A stretch of 64,000 nucleotides of DNA, taken from the NCBI GenBank assembly GCA_050084515.1, contig CM114271.1:20212001-20276000 (forward strand), written 5' to 3'. This stretch comes from Blasia pusilla. Taxonomy: Eukaryota. Below are positions 12,101 to 50,787 of the stretch, one piece after another. How positions within the stretch are numbered: position 1 is the first letter of the stretch; every line of letters starts with the position of its first letter. Made by a program: the position numbers and the translations under genes. Under the pieces are notes generated by a model that had not been told where the DNA came from, ran no database searches, and was given only the letters and a program-made list of their open reading frames with translations.

Positions 12101-15100
12101 AATCTGTTTGGAGCCATGGTCGTCAAGGGAGATGATGACCTATGTACCAAAATATTCCACAGCTATTAATGGAAGCATGATGGATGGATTGACAAATGAA
12201 TGAACAAACAACATGATTTATTGTCGACGGTGATCTGAGGGGCCAACGGAATCTTAAAAACTGCACTTCACAGATGTAAAAGCTTTGTGAGACACTCAGA
12301 TTGAATACCTGTTCGCGACGCTTCCTTGGCAGATATTTTAATACATCCTTTTTCAATCTCCGAATCATAATGGTTGATTTCACCAAGGCATGGAGTTCCT
12401 CCTTGTTGCAAGCTCCTTGCCATTGGCCAAAATAGCCCTGTAGGTAGAGAAGCACTTGTATTTAAAGCAAGTTGTAATCTCAGCATCAACTTCACAACAA
12501 AACGAGTTCAGGGAACAAGATGCTACTGGTAGATAACACTTACACCCTGGCAGTATCGGTTACCATATTCATGAATACTTTGGTAAACATGAGGTTGCAG
12601 AGCTTCAAGCTGCAGCAGGAAAAGACACCATATCAACTTCCATTGTCACTATCTTTCACACCCACATGGCACAAGTATGTGGCATTTCCAAGTCCTCCAG
12701 AACGTTTCACGAAAAACTGCCTATAATAGAAAGAAAAACAGTCGTAGTAGACTCTCAGAATTCTTTGGCTAAAAAGTGCAGGTATTTGGTTGGAAGGGCC
12801 CCTGGGGATATTGTTGCTTGCTAGGGCCCTTGGGCAGGATTAAACTTGCAGCTTTTAGATGGTTACTAGTGCTTTTATGCCCAAGGATCCTTATGAGAGG
12901 CACTGTTGGCCTACTGGCCCAACAAACCAAATAACAGCTGAAACTGAAAAGCTTCTGCAAATATGTAATCTGTACTAAAGCCTCAAATGATGGAGTCAAG
13001 GACTGAAGCAACCCTGGCGAAGCCTATGAAATGACTGGAATGGGAGCATGAGTAGTCCTCCTGCATTCTTAATCTAATAGTTGTTAAGCAAAAATCCTCT
13101 ACACTTTAGGTAGTTATACCTGTTTGTAAAGCTCAATAGGTCTTGAAAGGGCAGGAGTGCCAGTGAGTAAAAAAGCGTACTTTGCCTTCTGCATTTGGAC
13201 CCACAAAATTTCTGAGGCCATTTACCACTAGACCAGTAAATATAAAAGAGCAGAAGGCAAGGCTGTTAAGATTGTGCATTTAGCATAAAGTGATAATCTG
13301 TACCTGTAGCAGAGGAACACAAACATTTGTTCTCTTTGCCTGTGGATTTTTCATGTAATGAGATTCATCTGCTATCACAATCTGCTCCCAAGGAAGGCTG
13401 TGATTGTTAGAGATCTTAGCTCAAAAGAGAAGGCAAATTATTTTCTCTATTTCCATTCAGCTCAGAAAAATCTTTTGAAGTCATGAGTGATTCACAATCC
13501 ACAGGCACACTCCAAGAAGCTAAGGCGAGAGAGAGGGTTTGCAACTTACTTTAAAACAATTGTTCTTGATTACGACCTCCAGCTTGCTTAGCATATCATA
13601 AGACACAATATTAAATAGCCCGTCAATCTGCACTCTTCTTTTGCCAGTAGAGCGCTCAATGTTGAAACCATCACGACAGCTGCCTTGTGACATAACAATC
13701 TGTATGGGCAACAGCTCAATATGAGATTCAAGCATGTGGCATCTTATATGCGAAGAAGCTGGTGGGGCTCCAAATCTATAGCTGAAATTTCAGGGTTGGG
13801 TAGAAATTCAAGATGCTAACATCCAAACAATATTGTTTATGGTAGTGATGTGATGATACCGTTATGTCACTGGGGTCCACTTCTACCCACTGCACCAGCA
13901 TCTGCAAAACCATGCATCATTCCGAGAAACCATATTCATGACCAACAACTTCCACACACATCGCTGGATGTAGAGCCACATAACTGACCACACATGTAAG
14001 TACTTATTGTGGAGTTGCTTCTCATGAACAGAACCCCAAGAGATGAGAGGACATGATGCAAACCTTAGCCCAGTGCACGCGCAGTGACGAAGGGACAATG
14101 ATGAGTACGGGCCAATCATCTTTCAGGCAAGATACTACTGCTAAAGCCTGCACCAAAATAAAAGCTTTCTTTAAGAGGGATTGTGTGATGGAACAACATC
14201 GGCGTTGTACAGAAGCTCTGAAAGTTATGAGACAGTGTATTGATCCAAGTTGGTTACTGACCCCTTATCAGCTCCAAAAAACTGAAGTCAAGTGATTAAA
14301 ATACCATTCCAGATCCAGTCAAGACACAACTTCAACCTCAACTCTAAACAGCTACACTTCGGGGAAGTATGTGTAAGCAGCACCCAACCGAAATCGGCAG
14401 ACGCAATTCTGTATTGAGTGAAAGAACAGAAACGACTGTCACCTGCAAAGTTTTACCCAATCCCATTTCATCGGCAATGAGAGCTCGACCTCCATGCTGC
14501 AGAGCAAATCTGCATACACTTCCAGTAGACAGCAATCAAATTGACAGAAAGCCAGCAGTTGGACTAACATTGTACATCTGCATGCATGGTGTTGACTCCA
14601 TCTCACCACCATGCATGTCAACACATGTCAACGGTGTATCATGTGGAGGAGGAGAGTGGTTGCTCGTGTAGGACACCTACACTAGTTAGCTGCTAGGACA
14701 ACTGACTTCTTGTGCTGTCACTCCTCTGGCATAACCTGCTTACATTTGAAGTATTTGTAGCTTCAGGTAGCATGGCCCTGTTGGGTCACTCTGAAAATAT
14801 ACAGGCTCACTAATTATCCGATATAATACTCTCATTGCAAAAGTCATAGTAACATCTATTCTCGTTTATATTTCATTTGATCCAAGTTAAAAGCATGGTA
14901 ACTGATACAGAGATGCTTTTTCAAATGTTGAATTCTGAGTCAGAAGAGTAAGTGAATACACGAAGGCCAGATAACCCTTAAAAGTTACCTTTAATGGAAA
15001 ATTTGAAGGGTTGGTGATATAGTCCTGCAGTACCCAGAGCAAATAGAGAGCAGAAATTCACCTGACTCCTTCTGTTTGAAAGGGCATCAGTTGTGACTTC

Positions 15101-22500: not shown

Positions 22501-24438
22501 TATAACTTTTGTAGAAGAGATAAGTTTATCGTGAGTAATGTCATAGAATATCAAATACTTTAAAATCATCAGATATCAGATTGCCAAAAAAAATTAGTTG
22601 GCTTCTACTCTTAACGTGGAATAACATCACATAGGCAAATCCTAGTGCAAAAATAGATCTAATTACCAAAAGACAACATCCACTTATAGTTGAACCTTGA
22701 ATTTTATGAGCAGTCATGGCATACCCAAGTAAAAGAGGAAAGGTTTTCTTAACATATTTGCGGTCCGAATCATACCTTAATGTTGCAGACTTTGTCCTAG
22801 ATATAGTAACAAACTTACCGCTTGAGAGAATCATAACCTGAATTTGTAGTATCTCATTATCTTTATACATAAGCTCAACAACTTTTGCTAAAGAGCCATT
22901 AGCATCCTATATTCTCAATTTGATGTTGGATGTTAGCATGACTATGCAATGAAGGGCTACAAAAGGCAACTGGTAAAATCTCTTGAAGTTAAAAATTGGA
23001 GACATTTGGTTGTACTTCCAATACCTAACCATGAATGAAATAAAATGTTTTCCCACACTCCGGTGGTTCTTTGAAGAGTAGTAGACCAGATTTGATATCT
23101 TTGAAGAGTCAAAAAAGTTCGGATTGTTCACTATTTAGATTAGCTATGTCATGTTCAATAGGATGTGTTATGTCTGAAGTAGACTCATGTGTCAGTGGAG
23201 ATGATTGTGCTGTCATAAGGTCTGCAATATTAACCTGTAGTTCATGTTGTAAAGATAATGTACTTTTGCAAGGATATCTGCTACATGGACTTGACTCCAT
23301 AGATTTTTGAATCCATGTGCTTTAACTAGTATATAAGCATCATCGATAGATTTAATTATCTGCCTGAGAATACATTCATGGATATAATTCCATTTGATTG
23401 CAGATGAGGTCAACATACTACTTTCAAAATGGAACTTAACATTGGAAAGAAGAACTACATAAAAAAACTCATTGGTTTGGTGAAGTGGATGAAATTCAGT
23501 AAACCTAAGTACACGGGTAGTTTTTGAGACTATATTACCTAAGTTGTCTAAGCCAATGTAAGGTGTAATCTACTTTGGATAAGTTTTCAAAAACTGATAA
23601 TTAGTCCAGTAGTGTGTGAAGGTCAAATCTTCAAAAGCTTGTGGTCTATTGGAATATAGGAAAATTGGATGAATACATAGAACTGAAGCATCTTTATAAA
23701 AGAAACTCCGTTGTTTCGTCTTTTAGGATAGATCGATGAGATCTAGTAGAGAGCCTTTGCGATTAGTGAAGGACAGGCTCCGGAGCTCGAGATCGACCTG
23801 TTGAGGCCCCGGGAACTTGAGACAACATGCTTCCCCTTTGTTTCGGCTCATTTGGAGCCATATTAAGAAACTTACTATTTTGGATAAGTGTTGTTTTGAA
23901 GATATGATCAAATTTCTATTTTGGGAAGTAGCCCTTGACCTCCTACATCAGGTCAAGAGCCAAGGAGGTGACTTGGGAGCATAGGTTACCATGGAGAGAG
24001 CTTGGGAGAGGGGAGGGATATACTTCAAGGAGAGAGAGCTTGAGAGCTAATTCTCTCTTTGTTGAACCTCTTCGCATAAGGCGGCGGAGCTATGGTCCTC
24101 CTTGTCTTGTGTGTGTGTAACCCAAGCCTCTCATTAGGAGAGTGGGTTTGGTTTGACATTGAGAGAGACATGTGAGAGCTATGGTGTTGTGAGCGAAATT
24201 TGACCTTATTTTACAAAGAGAGAATGAGAGCGTGAGAAAACTTCAATGGAGGAGCTTGCTAGTTACTTGCTGTTGGTGCAAGTGGGGGACCGCTTTCCCC
24301 ATTCAGTGGCTCATGGGAGTGCTTATCGGACAAGCGCTACTTGTTTTACTATTTTTCATTGCCGATTTTTTATGGGGAAGAGTGGCGTGCGGAAGCGCTG
24401 CCCAAATTTCTGTAGAGATGAATTTTGAGGGCAAATTT

Positions 24439-25058
24439 CCCCATTCCAGTGCTCTCGAGCCGCGTTCGACCGTTGTCGCGTTGGTTGCCATTGCCGCCAT
24501 TACGGAGTGGACGGTTTTCCACGACAATTTTTTATTGTCTCACTTGAGCCGCCACCTCGTACTTTGTTGTGGCTGCCGCCGTCAGCCTTCACCATTGACA
24601 GTGTGTCGTCAACGGTCTACTGTCGCCTTCCGCTGTCAATCGTCGATTGTCGCCACCGCCTAGCGTCGCTTAGAGCCGCGTTTGACTGTTGTCCCATTCC
24701 AGTGCTCTCTGGCCGCGTTCGACCGTTGTCCACCGTTGGTTGCCATTGCCGCCATTACGGAGTGGACGGTTTTCCACGACAATTTTTTATTGTCTCACTT
24801 GAGCCGCCACCTCGTACTTTGTTGTGGCTGCCGCCGTCAGCCTTCACCATTGACAGTGTGTCGTCAACGGTCTACTGTCGCCTTCCGCTGTCAATCGTCG
24901 ACTGTCGCCACCGCCTAGAGTCGCTTAGAGCCGCGTTTGACTGTTGTCCACCGTTGGTTGCCATTGCCACCATTACGGAGTGGACGGTCTTCCACGATAA
25001 TTGTTGATTGTCTCACTTGAGCCGCCATCTTGTACTTTGTTGTGGCTTCTTCCGTCAT
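24439..25058 (+). repeat. ~254-bp tandem repeat (2 near-identical copies plus a partial third) in the leader of the outer element
   Basis: Units start cccattccagtgctctc at 24439 and 24693; the partial third copy runs to about 25058. Confidence 0.92.
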
Positions 25059-25595
25059 CGCAATTTCGTCATGAACCCGTGATGGAAGGTGACCTCGGGT
25101 TGATGGTGTTTGAGTTTTCATTTCATTCTGCTAAGTTGTGATTGGTAGTCGCTCGACGATGATCGAGTACCGTGCCATAACACCCTTAGCCGCGTTGTGC
25201 CGCTTGTGGCCGCACCGCACCGTCTCGATCGCGGAGCCGCTCCTTCACTAAGATGTAGAGCGTATGTATTTCTACATACGCTCTACACCTTATTGATATG
25301 CCGCACAGTGCCGCATCCCATTATCGAGTGCCGTGCCGTTTTTGTAGCCGTTACGTGCCGCCAGTGCGGCACCATATCGCTAGATTTGAACCGCATAATG
25401 AGGAGATTTGAGCATCGTTAGTATCAAAGGGATACGACTGGCTAATTGGAGGATTTTGTCGTCATGGTCGAGTTGGGGTCGAGATTTGTAGTTGTTAAGG
25501 AGCGATCAATATTTTTTCAGGTTACCCATTCTGGTCTTTTGCCTGTACGTGGTGTCGTGCGCATAAACATCGCTACATAACATACATCGCTGTCA

Positions 25596-25783
<188 letters not shown>

Positions 25784-26661
25784 TCCCATGCTAACTTATG
25801 GCATCCAAATAACAAGACAAGAAGTACCAAAATATCTCCAATAAAATAAGATCCAATCTCTCTCACAACACCATAGTTCTCATATGTGTGCACTCTAACA
25901 TGTCTCTCTCAATGTCAAACCAAACCTACTCTCCTAATGAAAGGCTTGGGTTATACACACAAGACCATAGCTCCGCCGCCTCATGCCAAGAGGTTCAACA
26001 AAGAGAGAATGAGCTCTCAAGCTCTCTCTCCTTGAGGTATACCCCTCCCCTCTCCCAAACTCTCTCCATGGTAACCTATGCTCCCAAGTCACCTCCTTGG
26101 CTCTTGACCTGATGTAGGAGGTCAAGGGCCACTTACCAAAAAATAGAAAGTCGATCATATACTCAAAATGGTACTTACCTAAAATAGCAAGCTCCTCAAT
26201 ATGGCTCCAAATGAGCGGAAACGAAGGGGAAACCTGCTCTCTCAGGTTTCCCGGGGCCTCAGCAAGTCATCCTCAAGCTATTGAGCATGTCCTCCACTAC
26301 TCACGAAGGCGCTCTACTAGATCTCATGGATCTATCCTAAAAGACGTGACACTTATCGTGCGCATACACATCGCTACACAACATACATTGTTGTCACCTA
26401 ACACACACACAAACACGCACGATCACATGCTAACTCATGGTAAATAAACAATGAGACAAGAAGTACCAAAATATCTCCAATCGCCCTCCTAGTTGGTGGT
26501 TAGATCCCTCTAACTCCAGATTGCCATCTATCCCTACTTACCATGACATACATCTCTCGGACGCTAAGAGCAAGAAGGTCGGGTGTTCATGTGGCCCCAT
26601 CGTTAGTCGCCTTCTTGTCATCCATGTCATAGACACAAGTCGGAATGTAGAACTACCTACT

Positions 26662-27900
26662 CTATGTACATCTGGGACACATCCATCGTCCTTGAGGAAC
26701 CCTAGTGAGAGGTGGCGTCAAACATGCCATATGCCATCCTCTCAAACACCCATCATAGACTAGCATAGTGGTTGCACCATGGGCGGAACCACACAATACA
26801 CACCGCAAGCCTGCAAGAACTATTACGTAACTCGGATCAACTGTACAGTCAATACTTGGAAGATGATATGGCGCACAGTTGCGCATATGGTCCTTCCAAA
26901 CCATACCATCTTGTCCCTCCAATAAGAGAACACTGGATGGCAAAACCTCACACACTCTCAAGACGGTGCACCATGCAGTCACATCCAACGTCGTGGGTGC
27001 CGTCTACTGCAACTAGACATAATCTCCCTGATGAAACCTCCAGATAGTAGGTCGATAACCACCTCCCCGAATAGTCGCATACCTCAACGTATCCCGATGT
27101 TGCGCAATCGCCAAGTTCTCAAACGCCATGGGCATCACTCTCCAAAACAACTCAGCCCTCAAAGAACATGCTCGCATCCATATATTAGGGTCATCAAGGT
27201 TCAACACCTCACTAGTATCTTGACGAATGGCCGTTGGTAAATCTGGCTCTCGGCCATAAAGCAACAAGTACGGCGAGAAAGATGCTAAGGATGCCTGCCT
27301 GTTGAATCTGTATCCCATCGCCAACCACGGCAACTAAAGGTCCCAATCTCCTAGGTGACCTCTCTGCAAGCCATACTTGCGTAGTCCTCTCTTCATCGTC
27401 TGCACAACCGCTCCGCTTGTCCATCCGCCTCAGGATGATCTCGCGAAGTAGTGCGGTGGTCGATCAGTGCCTGATCATACAAGGCTTGAAACTCCCTGCG
27501 GAACTCTGTACCTTGGTCTATCAACACCTCAACTGGTACGCTGTAACGACTCAACACTCGATCTAGGAAGGCATAATCTACTCCCTCACTCGCTTTGTCA
27601 TGCAATGCAACCAACTCTATCCACTTCGAGAAGTACTCGACCATCACCAACACATAACAACTATGGCGCTCCATCAAAGGAAAAGATCCTGCAAAATCCA
27701 AACTTCATCTATAACCTAAACCCATGATTGGAAGTGGATGTAACTGTGGAGTTGGAGCATTGAATGATGCTCAGACTCGATCATATACCATGCATCTGGC
27801 AATAAACTCCTGAACATCAGTGTGCATGCCTCGCCACCAATATTGAATCTCGAGCAAGCTGTATGTCCACTTCACTCCAAAATGACCCAACTCCTCGTGG
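26662..27900 (-). pseudogene. Integrase (H2C2 zinc finger, DDE core) with C-terminal PHD finger
   Basis: HEELGHFGV...YWWRGM...C near 27900-27790; core 27720-27200; PHD CVLCGSAHGATTMLVYDGCLRGWHMACLTPPLTRVPQGRWMCPRC at ~26805-26665. Confidence 0.9.
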
Positions 27901-28279
27901 GATGACGCACCAAACGTGCTCTCTACGAAGGATGAGGCACTACACGCACTCTACCATTCTCTCACACTTGCAATATATGTGTGCCCTCCCATCGAAATTG
28001 TCTGGCTCGCTGTAGGATCCGATCTCGCTCTCTAGCACCCACTGTGCTCGTGACGCTGCAAGTACGCAGGTACTCCAAGACCAGTCCATCGTCGTGAATG
28101 TCTTGGCCACCTGTTGTCTCCTCACCGGCCTCTGGATCTAAGGACTCTCCATCAGACCTCGCCATCGAAGTCTTAGCAATCTGGCTCTCCGTAGCCAACA
28201 AACCCAAATAGGCTGACACATGCCATCCTGGCACCAACTCCTCATCACTCTCACCATGCCAACGAGCTCTAGTCGCAAC

Positions 28280-29700
28280 TCACTGAATCGAGCATGGGTT
28301 ACGGCTCAAACCATGTGCATCCTGGTTGAGCATCCCAGGTCTATGCACCACTTGGAAGTCATACTCCTGCAACAAAAGAGCCCACCTCGCAAGCTTCCCT
28401 GTAAGCTTGTTGGACTCCATCAACAACTTAAGTGGTTGATGATCAGTAATGATGGTAAAGGGATTGCCGAATATATAACATCTAAAATGTGCGACAGCCC
28501 ACAATGCAACCAAGCACTCACCCTCATACGAGCTATACTTCGCCTCTACAGCGTTGTTTGAGCGACTAGCATAAGCCATCACAAACTCTCTACCATCATC
28601 ATCATGCTGGGTGAGCACGGCTCCAAGCCCCAACATGCTCCAATCAGTATGCAACTAGAAAGGACGCCCCCTGAACGATCTCCTCAATATGGGCGCGAAA
28701 GTCAATCTATCCTTGAGCATCCAAAATGCTCTCTCTTGCTCATCCCCCCAGTGCCACTCTTGATCCACCTTGGTCATCAAGGTTAGCGGCTTAGTAATCG
28801 AACTAAAACCCTTGACGTACCGTCAATAGAAGTTTGCCAATCCCATAAATGCACAAACTCGACTCACATCTGTAGGGCGTGGAATGCGTGAAATAGCCTC
28901 TACCTTCGTCTATTGCACACCAAGGCCCCCAGGGTACATCGTGTGACCCAAGTACTCAATCTGGTCATAGAAGAACTTGCTCTTGCTTGAATGTAGCTTC
29001 AGCCCATGTAACTGCAATTGTCGAAACACCTCCTCTAGATGTCCCTCATGCTCCTCAACCGTGGCGGTAAAGACTATGATGTCATCAATATAATACCTAG
29101 CAAAATCCAGACATGCCAAGATTCTATCCATGACCCTCTAAAACTCAGTCGGGGCGTTCTTTAACCCGAATGGTAAGAACCGCCACTGGTACAAACAATC
29201 CTTCCCGTGAGGATCGATGCCCCAAAATGTTGTCTTTTGCCTGTCCTCCAATCTGATAGGCAACTAATGGTATCCGACTCACAAATCCAATGAATTGAAG
29301 ACCTTTAATTTGCATGCCCAATCGCATCAAAGATCTCCTTGGGGGTGGGCATGGCATACCTATCGGACTTTGTCTGCCGATTGATAGGTCGGTAATCTCC
29401 ACACATCCGCCTATCCAGTTGCCATGCATATCCTTCTTGGCGGGCATGATAGTGGCAGATGCATACTCTCCATGCGACATCTCCATTAGTCCTGCTCCAA
29501 CCAAGGCCTCCTACTTTGAATCAGAGCCCTCTCCATGTCATTGTACCTGTAGGGTCGTCGGAAGATCGGCGTGTCACTCGACAACTCAATGCGGATCCTT
29601 GGACCCTTCAACGTACCCAAATCATGCATACTAAATGCAAAACAGCTCCTATAACTCCTAAGGAACTAGTGTATCCGACGCTGCTCTCCTCCTGTCAACT
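28280..29700 (-). pseudogene. Ty3/gypsy reverse transcriptase and RNase H
   Basis: EYASATIMPAKKD, YQWRFLPFGLKNAP, YYIDDIIVF (~29075-29095), IEYLGH, RNase H ORF 28280-28654. Confidence 0.93.
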
Positions 29701-30029
29701 TAGGGCCCATATATGGCTCCCAAGTCTCCATCGTGACTACGGTAGGACTCTCCGGCGTTGGTGTCGGTGGTTGCTATGGTGCAACCCCGTCTCAGACAAT
29801 AGAACTCTTATCTCCGTGTGCAGTACCCGGAACCACACTCAATGTTGTGGCTATCATCTCCTGGCGTACCTACAAAATATCCCAAGAAGTCCAAGGGTGT
29901 CTCTCTTGATCATCCTTGGTGTGTCGATCTCCTGGGTCTTGCCCCCAACCGCTGCCTTAACCGCCTCAATAAGCATGGGGCTCACCAACGCAATAAGCTG
30001 TGATCTCTCGCGTCCTCAAACAAAGCTGC

Positions 30030-30995
30030 TCAGCTACTCCTAAGCTGAAAATCCATATCAAACAGTTCAGGTCTATTTCCTGACCCAAGACATGACGTCG
30101 TGATGCCTCTGATAGTGACGGTACTACCGTCACTCTTGTGGGGAATCCCATCGCTCGCTCTGACTCATCGGCGTTGGGCTCCACCAACCTCTGTACTTGG
30201 TCATCCCAAACCAAGCCAGGTTCGTCCTCCTTAAATGCATAGGAAGCGGGAAAACCCACCAATGTGGGAAAGGCTGCCCGTGGCCTGCCAATCCTGTTGA
30301 CCACAATCAACGGCGGTCGATCATCTAGCCTCACTGATTGTGATTGACGGCCCGGATCCAATATAGAATCCACCAAAAAATTGGAGGGGCGCTCCACTCT
30401 CGCATATGCCCTCCGTAACACCTCGTGTGGTACCAAGTTGGTCCACCAAATACGGAGGCGATGTGCTTGTGAACCCACACTCGCCGCATCTAACAACAGT
30501 GCCGGGCCGATCCATGCGCGCACTTGATGTGCACTCGTCACCACGCGGGACCTCGAATTGCCCAAAATTGGCACATTCTCCATAATAGATGTTGGAGAAC
30601 GAGACTAATGCTCTTGTAAATATCGCAAGATCCGCATCATCTCCCAAAATAACCTAGACGGAGTGTCAACTAACCCGCTATCTCGTCCAACACTCAATTG
30701 GCCCTGACACGGCCAACCAACAATGACCAAGTCTATGGTCCCTACCCGCTCCAAGTCCTCCATCCCCACCAATGAAATGTCCCTCGGTAGGGAACTCTGG
30801 TAACCCTGAATGGCGGACATAGACAACAAGTCGGGAAACGGAGGCGTAACAATGCCACATGGTGAAGTGAAGCGTGCCTTGCAACATCATCAATCTCCAT
30901 ATACAGGTACTGCTGCACGCGCACTCCAGCGTGCAAAATTACAGCTAACCCAGTACTGATCCCTCCAAAGAGATCCAACACCCGAATACCCTTCT
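30030..30995 (-). pseudogene. C5-cytosine DNA methyltransferase domain (DNMT3-like) embedded in pol
   Basis: Motif I RVLDLFGGIS (~30955-30985), II YMEID, IV DLVIVGWPCQG (GWPCQG 30701-30718), VI ENV (30572-30580), VIII AHRLRIWWTNL (~30446-30463), IX-X ESERAMGFP...RRHVLGQEID. One frameshift and one stop. Confidence 0.9.
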
Positions 30996-31429
30996 CTGGG
31001 ATGCACCACACAATCGGGGTGGTGTCCAAAGGGGTCATAGCAGCACTCCTGCATACTTGGGGTTCCTTTGACCCGTCACACTCTGGTGCAAATATCTCGC
31101 TCCACGCAGTTTGCACATGCTCAGTGGCTAAGCGTCGGAGCTCCTCAGTCGAGCCCCAAAGTGGCACCTCTCCTCCACGGACTAATGCGGCTACCATGAC
31201 ACTCCTCTGCATAAAAATGTCAGGAACGGGAGTATCCTCTGCATGGACATGTCCCTCAATAAAATCACTAGGCCAAGTGATGGCACCACTAAATGCTGCT
31301 AAGGTCGCCATCTCTCTTGGCCGTCGCTCGATCATTGCACCTCTGAATCGAATAGGTAATGAGCTAAGGCGCCCATTATCTGACTGCCATCCTGGTGTGT
31401 AGGACGCTGACTCCTCCCAGTAATCCAGG

Positions 31430-33688
31430 GAAAACCCCATCGGGTATAACACTGCTCCACCAACCAAGACATCGTAGGACTCTGCATCAGTCACTATCGC
31501 CTTGGCTTGCACCACATACTCATCTGTACGATGTCTCGGGCGAATCCTCACCACGACCTCCTATCGGGTGATATATTGTGTGGTACTCGCTCCATCCAAG
31601 GATGTCTGTATCCGGAATGGACAACGCTCCACATCGGCTCTCGTCAAGCCCAATCCTCTGAATGACGCTTTCCCCGACATCAGGGGTTGCGCTCTTGGAT
31701 CCAACAAGACGCGCTGCGGACTAAAAGCTCTACCTCCGGGACTCACCAACTGGAAGACCTCTCCTCGGTTATCCACCAACAAAACACCAGGAGAAGCCAT
31801 GGCACGCTCTATCGCGGGTCTAGCGGGCATCTCTACCATCCTAGCAGCCGCAGCCTGCTATGAATCTGACGTAGACGGCCCGAGCATCCGCTCCAAAGGC
31901 AGGTCCATCACCTCCTCTCCAATCACCTCTGAACGTGATGCAGGAACTCCAACTCCACGCTCACATAGTGTAGCGGCCAGCCAAAAAACCTCGGCGGGCG
32001 TACCTCCGAACGTCATAACATCGGAAGCACATAACGGTGACCATCCCCAACAACGTACTTGACACATGCCCCTCCTGAGCATCAGCAATAGGAGTCGTCG
32101 TACTTGCTTCTCCCATCGCCCTTCATGCCTGCACACCAACAACATCACCAACTCTCCAGGAACTCTGATCAGGACCCATTGATGGGGTCCTCATTGCTTC
32201 AGACAACGTGAAAGATTGAGGAAGCCTAGTATGTTTTCTGGCTTCCCCTTGATGTGGATCCAACTCCGCGGCTGCTCCACGCATCACAACTACGGTGGCC
32301 TCCATCTGGGAAACCTCGTACATCCAACCAGGATCCTCCATATCTCTGGCTGCTCCATATGATGTCGATGCCATAGATCGGGCATCGGGTAACCTCAATG
32401 CCATAGCGGCAATCTGCTCCTGTAGCTGTTGTATCGGAGCAACCATCGTAGTCTCACGTTTGGCGTCTCCCTCGACGCGTCTAGGTGGTGGGACTCTACC
32501 TCCTCCATAGGAAACTCCACCACCCTATCGGGCAACTCGAGCTCCTCGTCCCCCAACGAGACCACCTGGTGCACGATCTCTAGGCCCACCCAGACCGACT
32601 ACTCGCTCTGGTGCCCTCTCTGGCCCTCGGTCCGGACGTAACTCAAGATGTAAATTGAAACACCTAGCACGTGTATGACCATACCTTTGATAATAGTCAC
32701 ATTGATAACCTCCTGGTGCAGCACCATCTCCTCCTCCATGCTGAGGCACACGTCCATGACCCTGACGAGTGCAATCGCGCTGATGATGGGCTCCACCACA
32801 TGACCAACAAGTAATTGTAGACGGCTGCTGTTGAGCCGTATATGAAGGCGGAGGTCTCTGTGGCACGGCCTCCCGATATCCTCCTTGAGCTCGTGGTGCC
32901 ATAGTCGACCTATCTCGGAGTCCACGTTGCGGCATTGGTGGTGTAGACAATCGTGACTACTCTCACCCAGAACCCATGGTGGCTACGCTCTCCTCTGCCA
33001 TGTTGCGCTCAATATTCTCGGCGGTCCTAAAAACATCTCTCAACGTAGGGGAGGTTTTCATAAGAAGCACCCCCTCCCGCACCTGTGTCCGCAGGGTCTG
33101 GTCCAGCATCACGTGACATGACTGGATAGCCTGAGCCTCTGTCACTCCTTGAGTGACGTTGATCAACCGGCGCAAGCGAGTGTAAGCCTCACACAAACTC
33201 TCACCCGGGCGCCTCTGGAAGTCGTGGATGCTTCGCAACTTCTCTGTCCGTACCCCCTTGTAGATCGCCCTCGACTCAGCAAAGAACTCAACCACGGGGT
33301 TGAACCTGGGACGAACCCGACTAGATGGTGCAACTGTTCCAGTGCGAGTGACCCCTCCTAAAACATCACTAGTGGAAGAGGAAGTAGGCTCTCCTGACTC
33401 CTCCTCATCTGGGAACGGCTCCGTCCATGACACATAATTGGGGTCATAGTAGAGTCGCCATGCCTCAATCTCCTGGGCATATGTGTGGGAGAACTCATGG
33501 AAATCGTCCATGGGCGCCCCTTCTAAATGTTGGAACATACCGTTCCATGCTCTAAACGGGTTGAACTCTCTAGAGCTCCTAGCCCACTGTGAGTCATACC
33601 AACTTCTAAATTCTTCAATGAAGTCGTGTAGCTCTATGGTGCCTATAGCACCTGAAAACCTACGCGGTCCTCTACCTTGATCGTCCAT
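31430..33688 (-). pseudogene. gag (two zinc-knuckle-like motifs) and aspartic protease of the inner element
   Basis: Gag-like FQRRPGESLCEAYTRLRRL; CWSCGGAHHQRDC and CDYYQRYGHTRARC; protease-like RVLLDPRAQP (degenerate LLDSGA) and YDVLVG flap. Confidence 0.8.
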
Positions 33689-36600
33689 CTCGTACGCTCA
33701 ACTGGTAGGACCACTCAATGTGTATGGTGGATCACTAACACACTCCCCCTCGTCTGAAGAAGACACAGAAGGAGATCGAGGTGGTCTCTCACGTGGAGAC
33801 CCTCAAAACCTGGCACCATTCCGGGTAAACCCTCCAAAGCTACTCTCAAGTCCACAACCTCGCCTCTCAAAATCCCGAAAGGACACCGTGATGGCCCTCG
33901 TGCCCCTCTCACATGATCATTCTCAATCTTGTAAGTAATTCCTCAATCACTCAAACTAAACATGCGGCACTCAATCTACACTTTCTCACTAAGATGTGTG
34001 CTCTACGGCAACAAGCAACGTGGTGCGGCAAATCAATCAATCTATCGTCTCATCGACAAACCATCCTCAACTCTGGACATCCCACACAGGTCTATGTCCC
34101 CTAAACCCATACATCATCGATACTTCTAGCATCAGCACGAAATCCAATATCCCAAATAACTTCCCAATATCCGGAAATCCCTCACACGTGCAGGGTAAGA
34201 GACCAGAATGGGTAACCTCACAATAATGTCGATGGCGCTCCTAGGCAACTAAAATTCTCGATCCCAGCTCGGTCGTGAAGACAACTCCTCCAATTAACAA
34301 GTCATAATCCTCTCGTACTGACATTGTTCAAACCTCCTTGATGTGTGGTGCAGGTCCAGCGGTCTGGTGCAGCACTAGCGGCACGTAACAGCTACAAACG
34401 GCACGGCACTTGGCGGCATATCCTCCTCAATCAGCAATTCACACGCTCTGCACCTTAGTGAAGGAGTGGCTCTACGATCAAGATGGTGCTGTGCGGCCAC
34501 AAGCGGCACGGCGCGGCAATTGGCGGCATGTTGCGGCTACGGGCGTCACAACACAGTACTCGATCATCGTCGAGCGGCTACCAATCCCAACATAGCAACA
34601 TGAAATGAAAACTCAAACACCATAACCCGAGGTTACCTGCCATCATTGGTTGATGATGAAGCTGCAATGATGGTGGCGTCTTAACCAAACTACGTGGTGG
34701 CGATGCAAGTCAGAGAATCAATGGTGGTCGTGGAAGACCCTCCACTCCATAATGGCGGCAATGGCAACCCAAAGGATGGACAACGGCCGAACGCGGCTCT
34801 GAGCAGCGCTAGGCAATGGCAACGGCCGACGGTGGACGGTGGACGGTGGATTGTGATAGTTGACCATTGATGGCAAACTGTTGACAATGACTATCACGGC
34901 GACGGCCTCCAACGGCACGGCGGCTGGTTTAGGGTTTGAACAATTTAACCCAAAAAAATTGCGTAGGAATGGTAGTTTTGCAAGATTGACCATAATTTTT
35001 TGCTCGCAACTCCAAATTGCACATCGTTTGTTGCACAGCCTGTACAGCTTCAAAATCTACGACAATATTAAAAAATAATTGGGAATCAAATATTCCAATA
35101 AAAACTGATGGGGACTGTTGTAATGCCCATTCTCCTACATAAAATTTGATAGCGCTTCCGCGCTGATTTCTCCCAACAGAAATGTAAAACATGTGAGAAC
35201 ACAAATCAGCAAGCTACATGGTGCTCCCAAGAGCATCCATATGGGGCAACCCGCCCCCATACTCAATCCCTATAAAAAAATTGGTCAGCACTTCCACGCG
35301 CCACTCTTCCACACAAAAAATCGGCAAAGGAAACATCACAAGTAAGCGGCTCTTGCTCCAGTGAGCACTCCCATGAACCGCTGAACGGGGAATATGATCC
35401 CCAACCTGAAAAACCAACTAGTGACCAGCAAGCTCCCCCATGAAGCTCTCTTACTCACTCATTCTCTCTTTGTAAAATAAGATCCAATCTCTCTCACAAC
35501 ACCATAGTTCTCACATGTGTGCACTCTCACACGTCTCTCTCAATGTCAAACCAAACCCACTCTCTTAATGAGAGGCTTGGGTTACACACAAAAGGCAAGC
35601 AAGACCATAGCTCCGCCACCTCATGCCAAGAGGTTCAACAAAGAGAGAATGAGCTCTCAAGCTCTCTCTCCTTGAGGTATACCCCTCCCCTCTCCCAAGT
35701 TCTCTCAGGTTTCCCGGGGCCTCAACAGGTCATCCTCGAGCTACTGAGCATGTTCTTCACTTCTCAAAAAGGCATTCTACTAGATCTCATAGATATATCC
35801 TAAGAGATGTGATAGTGATACAGAGTTTTGCGAGGAGTTTTAGGTCTTATGTGATCAGGTGCTGATCGACCACCGCACCATTTTGCGAGATCATCCTAAG
35901 ACGGATGGACTAGCAGAGAGGGTTGTGCAGATGTTGAAGAGAGGATTGTGCAAGTATGGCTTGCAGAGAGGTCATCTAGGAGATTGGGACCTATAGTTGC
36001 CGTGGTTAGCGATGAGATACAAATTCAGTAGGCATGCATCTTTAACGTCTTTCTCACCATACTTGCTACTTTATGGCCGAGAGCCAGATTTACCTATGGC
36101 CATTCTTCGAGATGTTGGTGAGGTGTTGAACTTTGATGACCCCGATGTATGGATGTGAGCATGTGGGCATGTTCTTAGATGGCTGAGTTGTTTTGGAGAT
36201 TGATGCCCATGGCATTTGAGAACTTGACCATTGCGCAACATCGGGATACATTGAGGGATGCGACTATTCGGGGAGGTGGTTATCGATCTACTATCAGGAG
36301 GTTTCATCAGGGAGTCTATGTCTACTTACAGCAGACGGTACCCAAGATGTTGGATGTGACTGCAAGACGCACTATCTTGAGAGTGCTTGGGATTTTGCCA
36401 TCTGGTGTTCTCTTATTGGAGGGACGCGATGGTATGGTTTGGAAGGACCATGTGCGTATCTGTGCACCATGTCACCTTCCAAAAATTGACGATAGTTGAT
36501 CCGAGCTAAGTAATAGTTCTTGCAGGCTTACAGTGTATGTTGTGTGGTTCCGCCCGTGGTATAGCCATTATGCTAGTCTATGATGGGTGTTCGAGAGGAT

Positions 36601-39600
36601 GGCATATGGCATGTTTGACGTCACCTTTCACTAGGGTTCCTTAGGGATGATGGGTGTGTCCTAGATGTACATAGAGTAGGTAGTTCTAGATTCCGACTTG
36701 TGTTTGTGATATGGATGACAAGAAGGCGACTAACAATTGGGTCACTACAGAGTAGCTCGAGCTATTCCTGAGCGCCGGTAAAAGCTGATGGATCTTCTTC
36801 CTTTAGGGCATGGAACTTTTGATGAGCCGCGCGCTCACAGGTGTCGATGTCCCATTAGTGGGCCCTTCACGGCTCGCTTAGGAAGGAAGAAAGGAAGGAA
36901 GGGTGCCCGCAAGCAAGCGAGCGCTATGGGAGGGAGGGAGGAGGGAGGGAGGACACCCGGCCTTTTTCTCTTAGCGTCCGAAAGATGTATGTCATGGTAG
37001 GTAGGGATAGATGACTATCCACAGTTAGAGGCACCTAACCAACAACTAGGGGAGCGATTGGAGATATTTTGGTACTTCTCACCTCTGTGTTTGGGTGCCA
37101 TGAGTTAGCATGGGATTGTGCGTATTTGTGTATGTGTTTGGTGACAACGATGTATGTTGTGTAGTGATGTATTTGCGTACGATAAATGTCACGTCTTTTA
37201 GGATAGATCGGTGAGATTTAGTAGAGCTTCTTTGCGAGTAGTGGAGGACAGGCTCATGAGGTCAAGGAGGACCTGTTGAGGCCTTGGGAAACCTGAGAGA
37301 GCAGGTTTCCCCTTCGTTTCCGCTCATTTGGAGCCATATTAAGGAACTTCCTATTTCGGATAAGTACCGTTTTGAGTATATGATCAATTTTATATTTTGG
37401 GAATTAGCCCTTGACCTCCTACATCAGGTCAAGAGCCAAGGAGGTGACTTGGGAGCATAGGTTACCATGGAGAGAGTTTGGGAGAGGGGAGGGGTATACC
37501 TCAAGGAAAGAGAGTTTGAGAGCTCATTCTCTCTTTGTTGAACCTCTTCGCATGAGGCGGCGGAGCTATGGTCCTCTTTGTCTTATGTGTGTAACCCAAG
37601 CCTCTCATTAGGAGAGTGGGTTTGGTTTGACATTGAGAGAGACATGTGAGAGTGCACACATGTGAGAACTATGGTGTTGTGAGAGAGATTTGACCTTATT
37701 TTATTGGAGATATTTTGGTACTTTCGCCTTTGTGTTTGGGTGTCATGAGTTAGCATGGAATTGTGCGTATTTGTGTGTGTGTTCGATGACAATGATGTGT
37801 ATGCGCACGACACCTTCTATGGTGAGGATAAGAGTCAATGTATGTGATAGATTGAGACCTATAGATTATGGGTATCTGCATGGATGTTAATAGAGCTTCT
37901 GTGGAAGACATAGACCTGTTGAGGACCATTCTAGAAATCAACTTTAGTCTTATCTCATCTACTCTCCAGAGACCTAGGCATCTGGCAGATTTTGTATCAA
38001 TATCCAAGGAACCGGTGGGTTCAGATTGAAGGGGATACTTTAGGAAAAAAACTCCAATTAGTATTGACGTTGTATGTTCATAACAACTCTCTAGAGAAGT
38101 AATATAAGTGGATGATATGCAATCACATTTCGATGATGAGGAGATAGCCTATAGTAATTACATTTCATTGTTAAAGGATCAATGAAAGGAACTAGTTCAA
38201 GGTTAATAGGTGATGGAAAGCCAAGACAACAATATGGTTTTGTTTGGCTTTTACGTACAACATAAATACCATCTTTGCACTTATGTAATTGTTTTCTCAA
38301 TTCATATTTTAGCAAAGTATCAAATGTCTTCTTTTGAGAGTGCGATAAATTGGGTAGTAACATACCAATAGTCTCTGTGGGTATGTATGTACATATCTCA
38401 GATGTTACTTCGTTTACATCTGAAGGCTCCAACCATGAAATCATGTGATAAGAAAGACTACCCCTACCCTGTAACTCATAACGTAGGAAGTAATTAATCA
38501 CTTTCCCAAGTAAGCGTGGCCCATTGAAAATAAACTGGCTCAGAAAAGAATGTAACCTGGTGTGAAATAATTGTGCACACTCAGCAGAGGCATCTCGCCA
38601 TGTGAAAATCGGTTTAAAGTTTTTCAACAAGGTTTCCATATTTGTGAACTCAGGCCATCGCGTTTCTAAGATTTCATCAGAGGTCAAAGTGAGGAAAAAA
38701 TGTGGCATGCCCCATTTGTGGACCATGGCTTTCAAGTCCTTCAAATGCCTTCTATGCCAAGTTGGGCTACCTGATAATTGGGGACTTATAGAGTATTTAG
38801 AGAGATGAACATACAAATCTCCTTCATGAACATCTGGTTTTTGTTTTCCAAGGTTTTCCAATTCTCTGTTTAGTATGAATGTCCTACTATTTGAACATAG
38901 AGAAATAGATTGACGAAGGTGGTGCATTAATAAGGCACATGGCTTATACAAGGAGAATGGATGGAATAATTTTTTAGAATGATTGCGCAAATACTTGGAA
39001 CACGTAGGGTGACCAATGAAATAACCCCAAAGGTAAGGAAGAAAAAATGGAAAGAGTCTTGTATCTATAGTAAGAAGTAGGTCTAGAGAATTTCCTGTGT
39101 TATCACTAAGTAAACTTTCATGTACGCATGCATATGCACACAACGTTATACTATCATTTTCAAAGATGTCAGTAGATGCACGCCTCCTAACAAGTAGCGT
39201 ATAGGCTACATCGTGTTCATAATATTTAGTTCAGGTTGGTAAGGATCATAACTCATACTAAAGGTTACTTGACCTTTTGCTTGAGACTGTTTTATTATGC
39301 TATTGATTGTTGTAGAAGGAAGTATAACAAGGCCACTGGAAGGATTAGGTAACTCTACTAAGGCTTTGTAGTCTTTGTGCAAGCTATTTATTTGAAGATT
39401 CATTACAAAGATATCCTTCAAATTTGCTGAAAGTGATCTTCCACTTGGAGATAGAGGATCGCTATTATTAAAGACGATAAGAGGAGAGTCTAGGAGAGAT
39501 GTCATATTGAAAAAACCTTAATGAAACCCATTGAACTTCTTCTCAATGCCTATCCTGGAGTCTACTATAGATAAAAGTTGCAGCTCAAGGGGATCAACAC

Positions 39601-41793: not shown

Positions 41794-45204
<3,411 letters not shown>

Positions 45205-47751: not shown

Positions 47752-50700
47752 TTAACCAAGGATCTCAAAATCTGAGAAAGGAGAACCTGGGTCCTTCCAT
47801 TCTCCCCACTCTTCATCAGAAGCACTACACTTCTCAGGTATTGGCACAGTTAGATCACCAGGAGGATACGGGCGAGGCTCTTTCAAAAGATACTCATCCT
47901 TTAGACTCTCTTCAGGAGTTGGCCTTTGCATGGGATCATATGTAAGAAGCTTTTGTAGAAACTGCAAGGAGTTTTCTGTTAAGTTCAGGAGATAGTTCCT
48001 GAGAGTCAGAGGAGACCGATCGTCCACAAAACAAATCTTGTTGTAATCAGGTAGGAGTGACACACCTGGCCAATCACTCTCACTTGGTGAACCCAATATT
48101 CTTACCAGACGGCTTAGTTGATCTATATCATTAATACCAGGAAAAAGTGGTTTCCCCCACAACAGTTCACCAAATATACAACCAACCGACCACACATCTA
48201 TCTCGGTTCCATATTTTGTGGCTCCATAGAGCAGCTCAGGTGCCTTATACCATCTTGTCCCTACCATAGTAGTAAAATCAGATCCATCCTCTGTTCCATC
48301 GTCACACCGGTCACTGAAGTCCTGTGAAAATCCACCGTTTCTGTTATAAGCCCCACCTTCTGAACCATCTTCCCATTCTTCCTGATTTGCAGAACCGACC
48401 CTTCTAGAATCACCAGTTCCTTTTCCACCTGAAGTATCTGCTTTTCTTGCTTCCATGTATGAATATCGAAACTGTGGGGCACCAAACCACCGAGTACCTT
48501 CAGCATCAGATAGTGAGGTGTCATGTTCCTCCATCTGTTCCCAAGAAGTGCCAACATCTCTATCAGCTGAAAGATTTCCAAGGTTCCCATCCAATCTTTC
48601 CTGCCGCATCTCCCTTACACAGCTGGCTTGCCCTTCACATCTTTTGTCCATTTTGTCAGTTTCAAACTTACTTGTTCTATTCTGTGGGAAGCTGGGGCGT
48701 TCTTCATCATCTGCAGGTGAACAAGTAGTATTGTGAGTTCCCCAGCCTTTGCCGACATCCCACAGGAAGTTATTGAACTTTTCTTTCTTGTTGCTCTTTC
48801 CTGAACCATCTTTCAATTCTCTCTTTGACTTCTCTTTTGATACAAAAATCTGATTTCCATGACTGATCTCCGAAGAAGAATCAATCTTTTCAACAAGACT
48901 ATTTGCATGCTGGTAGGCATCATTACCGGATAATTCCTTAATTGCCGAAAATTCATGACCACTGGCATTAGCCATTTCCCTCAGTGGCCCATTCAGCACC
49001 ACTCTATTTCCTGCCTTTCCTCCAATTCCTGATTCCTGCACAACTTTCTCCAGTTTCACATCCCTGTGCGTACCCTGGGCTTTGTCCTCAGCACTAAAAT
49101 CCTTGTCCACTTTGACAACACCACCACTCTGTGAACTCAGTATTCCCTGTTTCCCCAATCTACCATCTGGGAGACCTGCCACAGCCGATAAGCCATTCAT
49201 GTTCTCAGAAGTTTCCCTCTCAGCAGAGCAAGAGCCCTGATAGAGAGGGCTCCAAGATCCTCCTTCACATATTCCATGTGTTGCAGCCGATTCTTCAGGT
49301 AAGACCCTTGTATGTGAGGGTGAATGAAACAAAAAGTCCCTTGACGTTTCCTTGCAGATGTTCCTTCCATCCATTTGAATCTTGTCTGCAATACCAACAG
49401 GATTGTCATGAAGCACCATTTTTTCTTCCGCACTCAGTCGGTTTGTTCGCTTCCTCAAGAATCGCTGCAACTTGCGAAGAATATCATGTTCTCCCTTACC
49501 AGAAGGGACTTCCGTACTGTAGATCTCCATGTTGTCCTTGGTGACAATCCAGTCATTTTGAATTCCGTATTGCTTCTTCCAATTACCTTCACTCTCACCA
49601 GAGCTGGAATCATTTCCTTGCTCCGTCAGACAAACCTTGTCACTTCCATCAGAGACCTTTTGAACTGCACTTTCAACTCCACCTAGTACTGATAGTGACA
49701 TTTTCATGCTTCCACGGCCCTCCGCATTTTCCAAACAAAACCACCCACAGCAGCTAGGATCTTGACCCTCCCATCCCTTAGTCTGATTTCTGCCAACACC
49801 TGGTACTCCCAATCCATCTAATCCTGTTCCATTCCTTACCATTTCTTCCACCCCGACAGAGCTTGTAAACTCATCAGCAGTACCTGCTATTGGGCATTGA
49901 TCAGAAATATTTAGTGGAACAGAATATTTATCACTGCCTTGTTGCTTCTCAAAGTTCCTCTGCCCACATTCACGTCTGCCAAAATTTGTGTACTGCGACA
50001 GATGCTCCGGTTCATTGAAGATTAATACAGCTCCTTCACCACGAGTACCATGATTTTCCATTCGGTAAAGGCCACCAGAAGCTGCTGAAATCTCATCTTT
50101 CAGCTGCACATCCTCCGCATCGCTGCATGCAACCCCACCTATTTTGGGTTCGGATAACGGAATACTACCTCGACAAATTGGTAATATTCTTGGACTGCAA
50201 ATCTCTGTTACGTTGTGGACTTGACTTGCTGCCACATCCTCATCTGCTACCTCTGATTCATAGACATCTTCTTCATTCACATTGAGATCTTTCCTCAGCA
50301 CTCGTGCCTGCCCGAAATCTGCAATCTTGAGAGTACCATCCTTGGCAATCAAAAGATTGGTTGGCTTTATATCTCTGTGGACAATAGCCGCAGCATGACA
50401 TGCAGCTAGCCCCTGCAATATCTGAACTGTCCAACCTTTAACTTCCCCTTCTGAGAGTTCTCCTTTGCTAGCTCGTACTACTTCATATAAATTAGAGGGC
50501 AGGTATTCCAAGACCAGCACCATATTACTCCCTTGCACAAAGTACTCATACAGTTTCACAACATTGGGGTGATCCAGGAGCAACAGAGCCTTCACTTCTC
50601 GATATGAACTATCTGAGTCGTGAATTTCCTTCAAGGCTACGATGGTGTTATCTTCCCGTCTTCTTGCCCTGTAAACTTCCCCAAACGTTCCTTCTCCGAT

Positions 50701-50787
50701 CCTTTCAAGAATCTCATATCGTGACACAATCTCTTTGTTTCCATGTAAGCTCCAGGTGTCAGCGAAGGGCCAATCTTCAAAAGCCAT
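47752..50787 (-). CDS. CDKF;1: Cyclin-dependent kinase F;1 (plant CDK-activating kinase), 1011 aa, single coding exon
   Basis: WSLHGNKEIVSRYEILERIGEGTFGEVY, VALKEIHD..SSYRE, HRDIKPTNLL, DFGQAR, long insert, FTTMVGTRWYKAPELLYG, GINDIDQL, WPGVSLLPDY. The insert between subdomains VII and VIII is typical of CDKF. First ATG is at 50787; the track starts at an upstream TTG. Confidence 0.92.
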   Translation of the reverse strand: MAFEDWPFADTWSLHGNKEIVSRYEILERIGEGTFGEVYRARRREDNTIVALKEIHDSDSSYREVKALLLLDHPNVVKLYEYFVQGSNMVLVLEYLPSNLYEVVRASKGELSEGEVKGWTVQILQGLAACHAAAIVHRDIKPTNLLIAKDGTLKIADFGQARVLRKDLNVNEEDVYESEVADEDVAASQVHNVTEICSPRILPICRGSIPLSEPKIGGVACSDAEDVQLKDEISAASGGLYRMENHGTRGEGAVLIFNEPEHLSQYTNFGRRECGQRNFEKQQGSDKYSVPLNISDQCPIAGTADEFTSSVGVEEMVRNGTGLDGLGVPGVGRNQTKGWEGQDPSCCGWFCLENAEGRGSMKMSLSVLGGVESAVQKVSDGSDKVCLTEQGNDSSSGESEGNWKKQYGIQNDWIVTKDNMEIYSTEVPSGKGEHDILRKLQRFLRKRTNRLSAEEKMVLHDNPVGIADKIQMDGRNICKETSRDFLFHSPSHTRVLPEESAATHGICEGGSWSPLYQGSCSAERETSENMNGLSAVAGLPDGRLGKQGILSSQSGGVVKVDKDFSAEDKAQGTHRDVKLEKVVQESGIGGKAGNRVVLNGPLREMANASGHEFSAIKELSGNDAYQHANSLVEKIDSSSEISHGNQIFVSKEKSKRELKDGSGKSNKKEKFNNFLWDVGKGWGTHNTTCSPADDEERPSFPQNRTSKFETDKMDKRCEGQASCVREMRQERLDGNLGNLSADRDVGTSWEQMEEHDTSLSDAEGTRWFGAPQFRYSYMEARKADTSGGKGTGDSRRVGSANQEEWEDGSEGGAYNRNGGFSQDFSDRCDDGTEDGSDFTTMVGTRWYKAPELLYGATKYGTEIDVWSVGCIFGELLWGKPLFPGINDIDQLSRLVRILGSPSESDWPGVSLLPDYNKICFVDDRSPLTLRNYLLNLTENSLQFLQKLLTYDPMQRPTPEESLKDEYLLKEPRPYPPGDLTVPIPEKCSASDEEWGEWKDPGSPFSDFEILG

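Follow-up and report, generated by a model that had tools for sequence, protein, structure and literature searches.

The locus described here raises the question of whether a retrotransposon of a land plant can carry its own cytosine-5 DNA methyltransferase (DNMT) as a working part of its polyprotein. It lies in a 64,000-nucleotide stretch of Blasia pusilla DNA (GenBank assembly GCA_050084515.1, contig CM114271.1, positions 20,212,001 to 20,276,000), referred to below as the window, in which a Ty3/gypsy-type element occupies the minus strand at approximately 25555-35819. Taken jointly, the results make it very likely that this element is a dead copy with a DNMT3-type C5 domain, and that the domain is built into the polyprotein of a family in which its motifs are conserved and under purifying selection and which is abundant in the host, with sense RNA present.

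A methyltransferase domain between protease and reverse transcriptase

The minus strand was translated in all three frames. A non-permuted C5 cytosine methyltransferase domain was found at approximately 30032-31020, close to the 30030-30995 of the initial annotation, between the protease (PR) and reverse transcriptase (RT) regions, with motifs I, II, IV, VI, VIII and IX-X in canonical order, as the initial annotation had read them from the letters. Motif names are those in use for C5 methyltransferases. Frame -2 holds motif I (VLDLFGGISTG) and motif II (YLYMEID), while frame -1 holds motif IV (GWPCQG), motif VI (ENVP), motif VIII (QAHRLRIWWTNL, containing the RxR of RLRIWWTNL), motif IX (ESERAMGFP) and motif X (GQEIDLN). 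The domain thus consists of two pieces:

30838-31020, minus strand: DNMT N-terminal piece with motifs I and II; frame -2, open with the protease end; BLASTP to P0002 residues 304-364, 57% identity, E 3e-21
30032-30838, minus strand: DNMT motifs IV (PCQ), VI (ENV), VIII (RxR) and IX-X; frame -1 with one TAG; PF00145 E 9.3e-8; BLASTP to P0002 residues 365-640, 65% identity, ungapped

The best homologue of the domain was a protein of Calypogeia fissa (P0002; E 1.2e-111, 65% identity). As the two pieces abut without a gap on this protein, the domain has exactly two breaks in this copy: one frameshift, near 30835, and one stop, a TAG at 30605-30607 between motifs IV and VI. The stop aligns with a glutamine in both Marchantia proteins compared. 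The catalytic cysteine of PCQ that had been reported as intact is indeed present, but the domain around it is not intact, and the window copy has no uninterrupted DNMT reading frame. One extra base was found at the site of the frame break in 200 of 397 host DNA reads, which indicates that sister copies do not share this break.

A search with the domain read through its stop with X (P0001) gave a PF00145 match that was limited to profile positions 49-120, the motif IV-VI part, with E 9.3e-8 and a score of 32.3 bits, above the curated cut-off of 22; this was the profile hit that the initial annotation had asked for. The open reading frame (ORF) 30605-30886 alone matched at E 4.9e-6. Pfam returned no family for the motif I piece alone, for ORF 29966-30604 or for ORF 30742-31560. 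Within the last of these open frames, motif I is joined to a conserved stretch, SYDVLVGGAVLYPMGF, that in relatives follows the DSG motif of the protease; the earlier statement that motif I shares a frame with the end of the protease therefore holds.

The domain is a built-in part of a gypsy polyprotein

The element around the domain was mapped by Pfam analysis of stop-to-stop ORFs and by tblastn using three relatives as queries: a Marchantia gag-PR-DNMT protein (P0004), a Marchantia PR-DNMT-RT-RNaseH protein (P0006) and an algal polyprotein (P0017). Pfam matches were obtained for RVT_1 (28910-29137), RT_RNaseH (28280-28654), rve (27393-27704) and a PHD finger (26662-27003), and no family was found in 7 of the 12 ORFs scanned, gag ORFs among them. 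The tblastn alignments were fully collinear with the three relatives from 33673 to 26668. Pfam and collinearity together give gag upstream of a pol in the order PR, RT, RNase H and integrase (IN), which is that of a gypsy element:

33698-35472, minus strand: 5' untranslated leader with short tandem repeats; inverted match to the leader of a second copy at 24213-25551
32171-33697, minus strand: gag, 3 in-frame stops; tblastn to P0004 residues 9-490, 42% identity
31021-32040, minus strand: protease region, 2 in-frame stops; tblastn to P0004 residues 527-932 and translation compared with P0004
28262-29722, minus strand: reverse transcriptase and RNase H, interrupted by three frame changes and at least 6 stops; Pfam RVT_1 and RT_RNaseH, tblastn pieces in frames -1, -3, -2 and -1
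27013-28102, minus strand: integrase with its zinc-binding part and rve core, broken by two frame changes and by several stops; Pfam rve on 27393-27704, tblastn to P0017 residues 1048-1279
26668-26802, minus strand: C-terminal PHD finger; PF00628 E 1.1e-9, residues 68-112 of ORF 26662-27003

A CCHC knuckle, CWSCGGAHHQRDC, is encoded in gag ORF 32525-32956. The protease motif reads DPR in the window copy as opposed to DSG in relatives, the latter being what we take to be the retropepsin active-site motif. Frame changes were located by tblastn between gag and PR, inside DNMT, at three places in RT and at two in IN, and at least 20 in-frame stops are spread across the element. Many of the stops in the window are TAG at positions where relatives have glutamine, a pattern that resembles decay by C-to-T changes.

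Uninterrupted gene models for both gag-PR-DNMT and PR-DNMT-RT-RNaseH exist in Marchantia. Because the window is collinear with these single-frame proteins (P0004 and P0006) and the two domain pieces abut gap-free, the DNMT domain is a built-in part of the polyprotein and not a later insertion, in agreement with what had been proposed. Identity to Marchantia by tblastn was 60% for DNMT, the same as for RT-RNaseH (60%), and 43% and 42% for PR and gag, respectively.

Type of methyltransferase

A profile built from nine family members was searched against all PDB sequences, of which 57 matched at E ≤ 1. The matches were ranked as follows:

DNMT3A: E 9e-21
DNMT3C: E 6e-19
DNMT3B: E 1e-18
DRM: E 1.4e-9 to 2e-6, motif I-IV half only, chain residues 223-352
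M.HhaI: E 5e-6
DNMT2: E 5e-4 or worse

No sequence named DNMT1 was among the 57. An AlphaFold model was made of an uninterrupted relative from a metagenome (L003) rather than of the window copy. It had a mean predicted local distance difference test score of 62.6, with the core mostly above 80, and a predicted template modelling (TM) score of 0.67. Foldseek searches with this model returned solely DNMT3A, DNMT3B and DNMT3C chains among the matches listed (ranks 1-50), at target TM scores of 0.71-0.76 against DNMT3 catalytic-domain chains. By both profile and fold the domain is thus predicted to be a DNMT3-type cytosine-5 methyltransferase. The DRM-type permuted order, with motifs VI-X before I-V, is absent and the order is canonical; the window domain is not a DRM. 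The initial annotation had reached the same view from motif style. Pfam detected neither PWWP nor ADD, the companion readers of cellular DNMT3, and the sole reader is the PHD finger at the far end of pol. An ESM Atlas look-up of the Marchantia domain gave generic PF00145 clusters only, and tblastn of the domain against phage records gave no match.

Relatives and two domain arrangements

The window domain retrieved 38 proteins at E ≤ 0.001 among 5673 candidates. These included Calypogeia fissa (65% identity), 11 Marchantia rows (53-61%), Sphagnum (47%) and unnamed metagenome proteins, as well as weaker matches to polyproteins, including those of Cymbomonas and Monoraphidium. When one of the weaker polyproteins served as the query, 260 proteins were returned; the names found in the best 120 of the 260 were Haematococcus (3) and Chromochloris (1), along with two EukProt transcriptome ORFs. 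Across the whole 50% library, 2997 proteins matched at E ≤ 0.001; the count fell to 794 at a threshold of 1e-10 and to 233 at 1e-30. The 150 top-ranking matches of this representative search, with E-values no worse than 1e-39, belonged without exception to the family. The name Klebsormidium did not occur among the 38 matches, the best 120 of the 260 or the 20 clusters looked up. One algal-clade polyprotein (P0143) bears the source label of a bacterial metagenome-assembled genome (Minisyncoccia), which is probably a binning error.

Pfam coordinates on these proteins revealed two arrangements. In arrangement 1 the order is CCHC-PR-DNMT-RT-RNaseH-IN (Marchantia P0006 and the unnamed P0315 and P0318), and in arrangement 2 it is RT-RNaseH-DNMT-IN-PHD (P0017, P0098, Haematococcus P0165 and P0316). 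A C-terminal PHD finger is common to both clades, and the order in the family of the window is gag-PR-DNMT-RT-RNaseH-IN-PHD. Phylogenetic trees of the domain, calculated without an outgroup and midpoint rooted for drawing only, separated the two arrangements as two clades with support of 100/100 in a careful tree of 31 rows. In a quick tree of 37 rows, for which the Shimodaira-Hasegawa-like approximate likelihood ratio test (SH-aLRT) was the only support measure, the value was 100; six rows of this tree have no RT on the protein and were left unassigned as to arrangement, and seven were classed as DNMT before RT solely from a protease preceding the domain. The window domain falls within the arrangement 1 clade beside Calypogeia, Marchantia and Sphagnum. 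A chlorophyte algal clade with DNMT after RNase H appears from these trees to be its sister. The two DNMT positions reflect either one move of the domain or two captures.

Conservation and selection

Sequence conservation was evaluated in 161 of 178 proteins that had at least 280 residues of the domain, comprising 18 bryophyte-clade and 143 algal-clade rows. In the bryophyte clade FGG, PC, ENV, RxR and ERE are conserved in 14-18 rows, gaps apart. In the algal clade the catalytic cysteine, the E and N of ENV, RxR and ERE are conserved in 135-143 rows, the cysteine in all 143. The residue before this cysteine is glutamate in 100 of the 143 algal-clade rows, proline in 28 and serine in 9 (proteins P0017-P0179), and the members with the EC dipeptide may be altered or inactive enzymes.

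The initial annotation had allowed for the domain being absent from sister copies; it is carried by those of Marchantia, Calypogeia and Sphagnum and by 80 metagenome loci, kept from 129 relatives. Most of the metagenome copies have 1-10 in-frame stops and yet align in one ungapped piece, which indicates decay by substitutions more than by insertions and deletions. Ratios of nonsynonymous to synonymous substitution rates (dN/dS) were calculated by the pairwise Nei-Gojobori method with stops masked, on pairs that are non-independent and that come from these metagenome-contig relatives rather than from host copies. For 33 copies of the DNMT domain dN/dS was 1.01 in 12 pairs with dS below 0.05, followed by 0.63 (dS 0.05-0.15), 0.52 (0.15-0.3), 0.63 (0.3-0.6) and 0.15 (dS above 1). 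For 27 copies of RT-RNaseH the values were 0.53, 0.38 and 0.32. The DNMT domain thus appears to be under purifying selection that is weaker than that on RT-RNaseH and clearest on old branches. The comparison across copies that had been suggested hence gave evidence of constraint at deep dS, but not of strong constraint among close pairs (0.52-0.63). For Klebsormidium Gypsy-Dnmt3 copies, Ka/Ks values under 0.2 are given in the accessible text of PMC5890265.

Abundance and transcription in the host

The element family is abundant in the host, where sense-strand RNA from it is also present. In a host DNA run (X17), 70,314 of 12,434,590 records, roughly 0.6%, matched 26600-33800 at a likeness of at least 88%, and only 116 of the 70,314 were at least 99% alike to the window copy. 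In three RNA runs almost all of the coverage had the first mate on the plus strand, for example 89 against 4. Sense RNA would be expected to give this pattern in stranded libraries of the usual kind.

A pile of loose read ends at 29793 was considered as a DNMT-skipping junction and rejected: its consensus resembles the next letters of the window, and the joints skip only 18-37 bases.

Terminal repeats, second copy and other features of the window

The ends of the element and of a second family copy in opposite orientation were delimited from direct and inverted repeats:

35473-35819, minus strand: terminal repeat A1, the 5' long terminal repeat (LTR), lacking approximately 175 bp found in A2; direct repeats to 25842-26356 at 85-97%, blastn 92% and 87%, four-way alignment
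25842-26356, minus strand: terminal repeat A2, the 3' LTR; direct repeats, blastn and alignment
26356-26481, minus strand: short repeat B1, immediately preceding the 3' terminal repeat; 26401-26481 matches 25762-25842 at 86%, and 26356-26420 matches 25555-25619; alignment
25555-25842, minus strand: short repeat B2, which follows the 3' repeat, is interrupted by an expanded (TG)n and is probably the 3' end of the element; repeats and alignment
23717-25551, plus strand: second family copy, reduced here to terminal repeat and leader; matches 34185-35812 in inverted orientation at 72-84%
35808-37798, plus strand: 3' part of the second copy with integrase end, PHD and B-A-B (37057-37140, 37192-37703 and 37703-37798); tblastn to P0017 residues 1241-1524, four-way alignment, 87% match in inverted orientation to 25762-27200

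The two long terminal direct repeats expected of a gypsy LTR element are present, A1 and A2 being about 87-92% alike. Within B2 a repeat was flagged at 25597-25781. The second copy is without the part from gag to mid-integrase, and the studied element fills exactly that gap. Repeat order was also checked in five long metagenome loci (L052, L024, L047, L027 and L018). The order A-coding-B-A-B was seen in the studied element, in the second copy, which has the same B-A-B end, and in L052 (its B-A-B part at 11569-12137), and B-A-B was seen at the 3' end of L024 (14441-15093). L047 had direct repeats approximately 7 kb apart only, and repeats of this kind were not seen in L027 or L018. A-coding-B-A-B repeats are typical of DIRS and Ngaro elements, and it is unusual to find the 3' terminal repeat bracketed by two B repeats where the integrase is of the DDE type. 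Tandem repeats of approximately 255 bp occur in the leaders of both copies (24457-25057 and 34686-34881).

Elsewhere in the window, an intronless and uninterrupted protein kinase ORF of 1016 residues is located at 47755-50802 on the minus strand. It is CDKF-like by the names of its matches, the five best of the 120 listed being from Calypogeia, two Marchantia species and two Riccia species, followed by Arachis and a lycophyte, and its observed/expected CpG ratio is 0.39. The liverwort matches of this neighbouring gene make a liverwort host very probable. ORF 38094-39230 on the minus strand has a Helitron_like_N domain (E 5e-17), and a Copia-type reverse transcriptase fragment lies at 43225-43632 on the plus strand (RVT_2, E 1e-30).

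Interpretation and alternatives

We propose, tentatively and with somewhat less than even confidence in the scheme as a whole, that in live copies the domain would be released, or remain fused to RT, inside the particle, where it would carry out de novo methylation of the new DNA of the element, either ahead of integration or during it. By reading histone tails, the PHD finger of the integrase would select the landing site. The benefit to the element might be that the new copy is marked in a way that the host tolerates, or that its own expression is limited. Packaging with RT and methylation of the cDNA have already been suggested in the paper on Gypsy-Dnmt3 of Klebsormidium (PMC5890265, cited here and below from the accessible part of its text).

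Several observations weigh against an element-borne enzyme at work in this host. The window copy itself is dead and cannot make the enzyme, on account of its frameshift, stop, DPR protease and at least 20 in-frame stops, and the domain is uninterrupted in just 2 of the 80 metagenome loci (L003 and L028). DNMT dN/dS values of 0.5-0.6 signify weaker constraint than on RT-RNaseH and mix neutral decay after insertion with selection. Host DNA depth was 383-713 over 29974-31178, which covers DNMT, compared with approximately 1240-1985 in most protease, RT and integrase bins, that is about a quarter to just under half of those bins. RNA depth was 1-10 over DNMT compared with approximately 40-145 in RT and IN; reads at least 99% alike to the window copy numbered 0-1 per RNA run. 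The domain may accordingly be missing from the transcribed copies, or have diverged in them. When the Klebsormidium domain was assayed in yeast, no methylation was seen, a result that its authors call inconclusive since human DNMT3B failed there too (PMC5890265), and activity has been demonstrated for no Gypsy-borne DNMT.

The yeast result is also what would be expected if the domain were a DNA- or chromatin-binding module that tethers the pre-integration complex, perhaps together with the PHD finger, with little or no methylation. The substitution of glutamate for the proline of PC in 100 of 143 algal-clade domains, although the cysteine is kept in 143 of 143, points the same way. In the clade of the window, however, PC, ENV, RxR and the FGG that binds S-adenosylmethionine are all conserved, a pattern needed by an active enzyme and not by a mere binding fold, and the failure of human DNMT3B in the same assay takes weight from the yeast result. 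We therefore consider a pure binding role unlikely. An active enzyme might instead act mainly in the nucleus, on integrated copies or neighbouring host DNA, and in this manner shape host methylation or the silencing of the element itself; this reading departs from the preferred one solely in where and when the enzyme acts. The high abundance of the family and the presence of its RNA would be in line with this, and accidental activity of the Dnmt3 of the element on the host genome was raised in the Discussion of the 2018 paper (PMC5890265); the position of the domain between PR and RT suggests rather that it travels with the particle proteins. We regard nuclear action as possible but doubtful as the main role.

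It is, finally, extremely improbable that the arrangement is an artefact, be it a host DNMT3 gene with a retrotransposon inserted, a later insertion into this copy or a misassembly. Such an error would be conceivable in view of the rearranged locus, where parts of a truncated, oppositely oriented copy flank the element. Against this, the order recurs in proteins of Marchantia (11 rows), Calypogeia and Sphagnum and at 80 metagenome loci, unnamed polyproteins too have the domain upstream of RT, the motif I piece and the protease end share one frame, and family reads span the junctions at depths of hundreds. Methylation of new element DNA in the particle thus remains our preferred, if tentative, account of what the domain does.

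As to origin, Gypsy elements with a built-in DNMT3-type domain could form an old green-lineage family with two arrangements, of which that with DNMT before RT survived into land plants and is both abundant and transcribed in liverworts and mosses. This wider reading is speculative and, on balance, we would not expect it to hold in full. Gypsy-Dnmt3 has been described in Klebsormidium alone, and Marchantia and Sphagnum are unnamed in the accessible text (de Mendoza et al. 2018, PMC5890265); a preprint mentions "streptophytes (Gypsy-DNMT3)" generally in the part available (10.64898/2026.05.21.726589). No paper on such elements in bryophytes or in the algal sister clade was found in a search that had subscription journals outside its scope. 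The extension of a known kind of element to land plants, which the initial annotation had foreseen, is in this sense new to the literature, but it is modest, as gene models of Marchantia, Calypogeia and Sphagnum were already public. If it is correct and the enzyme is active, de novo cytosine methylation in bryophytes would have a second source, borne on a transposon. A retrotransposon that bears the very enzyme used to silence it is one of the rare instances in which a parasite has taken up epigenetic machinery of its host. With such elements in liverworts and mosses, the question of what the enzyme does for them moves into land plants and into Marchantia, a model that is tractable genetically and has uninterrupted gene models, and the two domain positions, together with the glutamate-for-proline change in most algal members, provide natural variants for comparison.

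Comparison with known systems

The systems that resemble the window element do so in different respects. REM1 of Chlamydomonas is likewise a Gypsy element with a PHD finger at the integrase end, likely a histone reader (cited in PMC6673714, of which part was available). In the EpiLTRs of Cymbomonas and Euglena, a cytosine DNMT and a chromatin reader occur together in an LTR element; they differ in that the DNMT is reported as sister to DNMT4 and appended at the 3' end of pol, alongside an adenine methylase and a chromodomain, and the accessible part of the preprint calls them distinct from streptophyte Gypsy-DNMT3 (10.64898/2026.05.21.726589). Plant DRM is a distant relative of DNMT3 found in the same plant lineages, but it is circularly permuted, and its profile match was at least 10 orders of magnitude weaker than that of DNMT3 and confined to motifs I-IV.

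Cellular DNMT3 (animal DNMT3A, 3B and 3C) gave the best profile and fold matches and has the same motif order. In contrast to it, the family is without PWWP and ADD and is embedded in a retroelement polyprotein, and identity to the human enzymes is approximately 21-23%. The plant DNMT3 of Physcomitrium is a further system for comparison (Yaari et al. 2019, PMC6453930, accessible text).

Retrotransposon-borne DNMTs are known from Symbiodinium as SymbioDIRS-Dnmt3 and SymbioLINE-Dnmt (PMC5890265). SymbioDIRS-Dnmt3 has a Dnmt3-type domain in the Pol ORF and occurs in two domain orders, just as the two clades of the window family differ in order, and CG methylation by SymbioDIRS domains was shown in yeast. 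These elements differ in their backbone, DIRS with a tyrosine recombinase or LINE, and in their dinoflagellate host (PMC5890265).

The closest known element is KnitGypsy-Dnmt3 of Klebsormidium nitens, likened here by description and not by sequence. It belongs to the LTR Gypsy elements, and its Pol ORF includes a Dnmt3-type domain that is not rearranged; key residues are conserved, and there is purifying selection among copies (PMC5890265). The accessible text of that paper does not give the domain order, and the term PHD has 0 occurrences in it. According to the figure legends its repeats are DIRS-like, in the order A-coding-B-A-B, the same order as in the window copies. Its host is a charophyte, while that of the window is a liverwort-like land plant.

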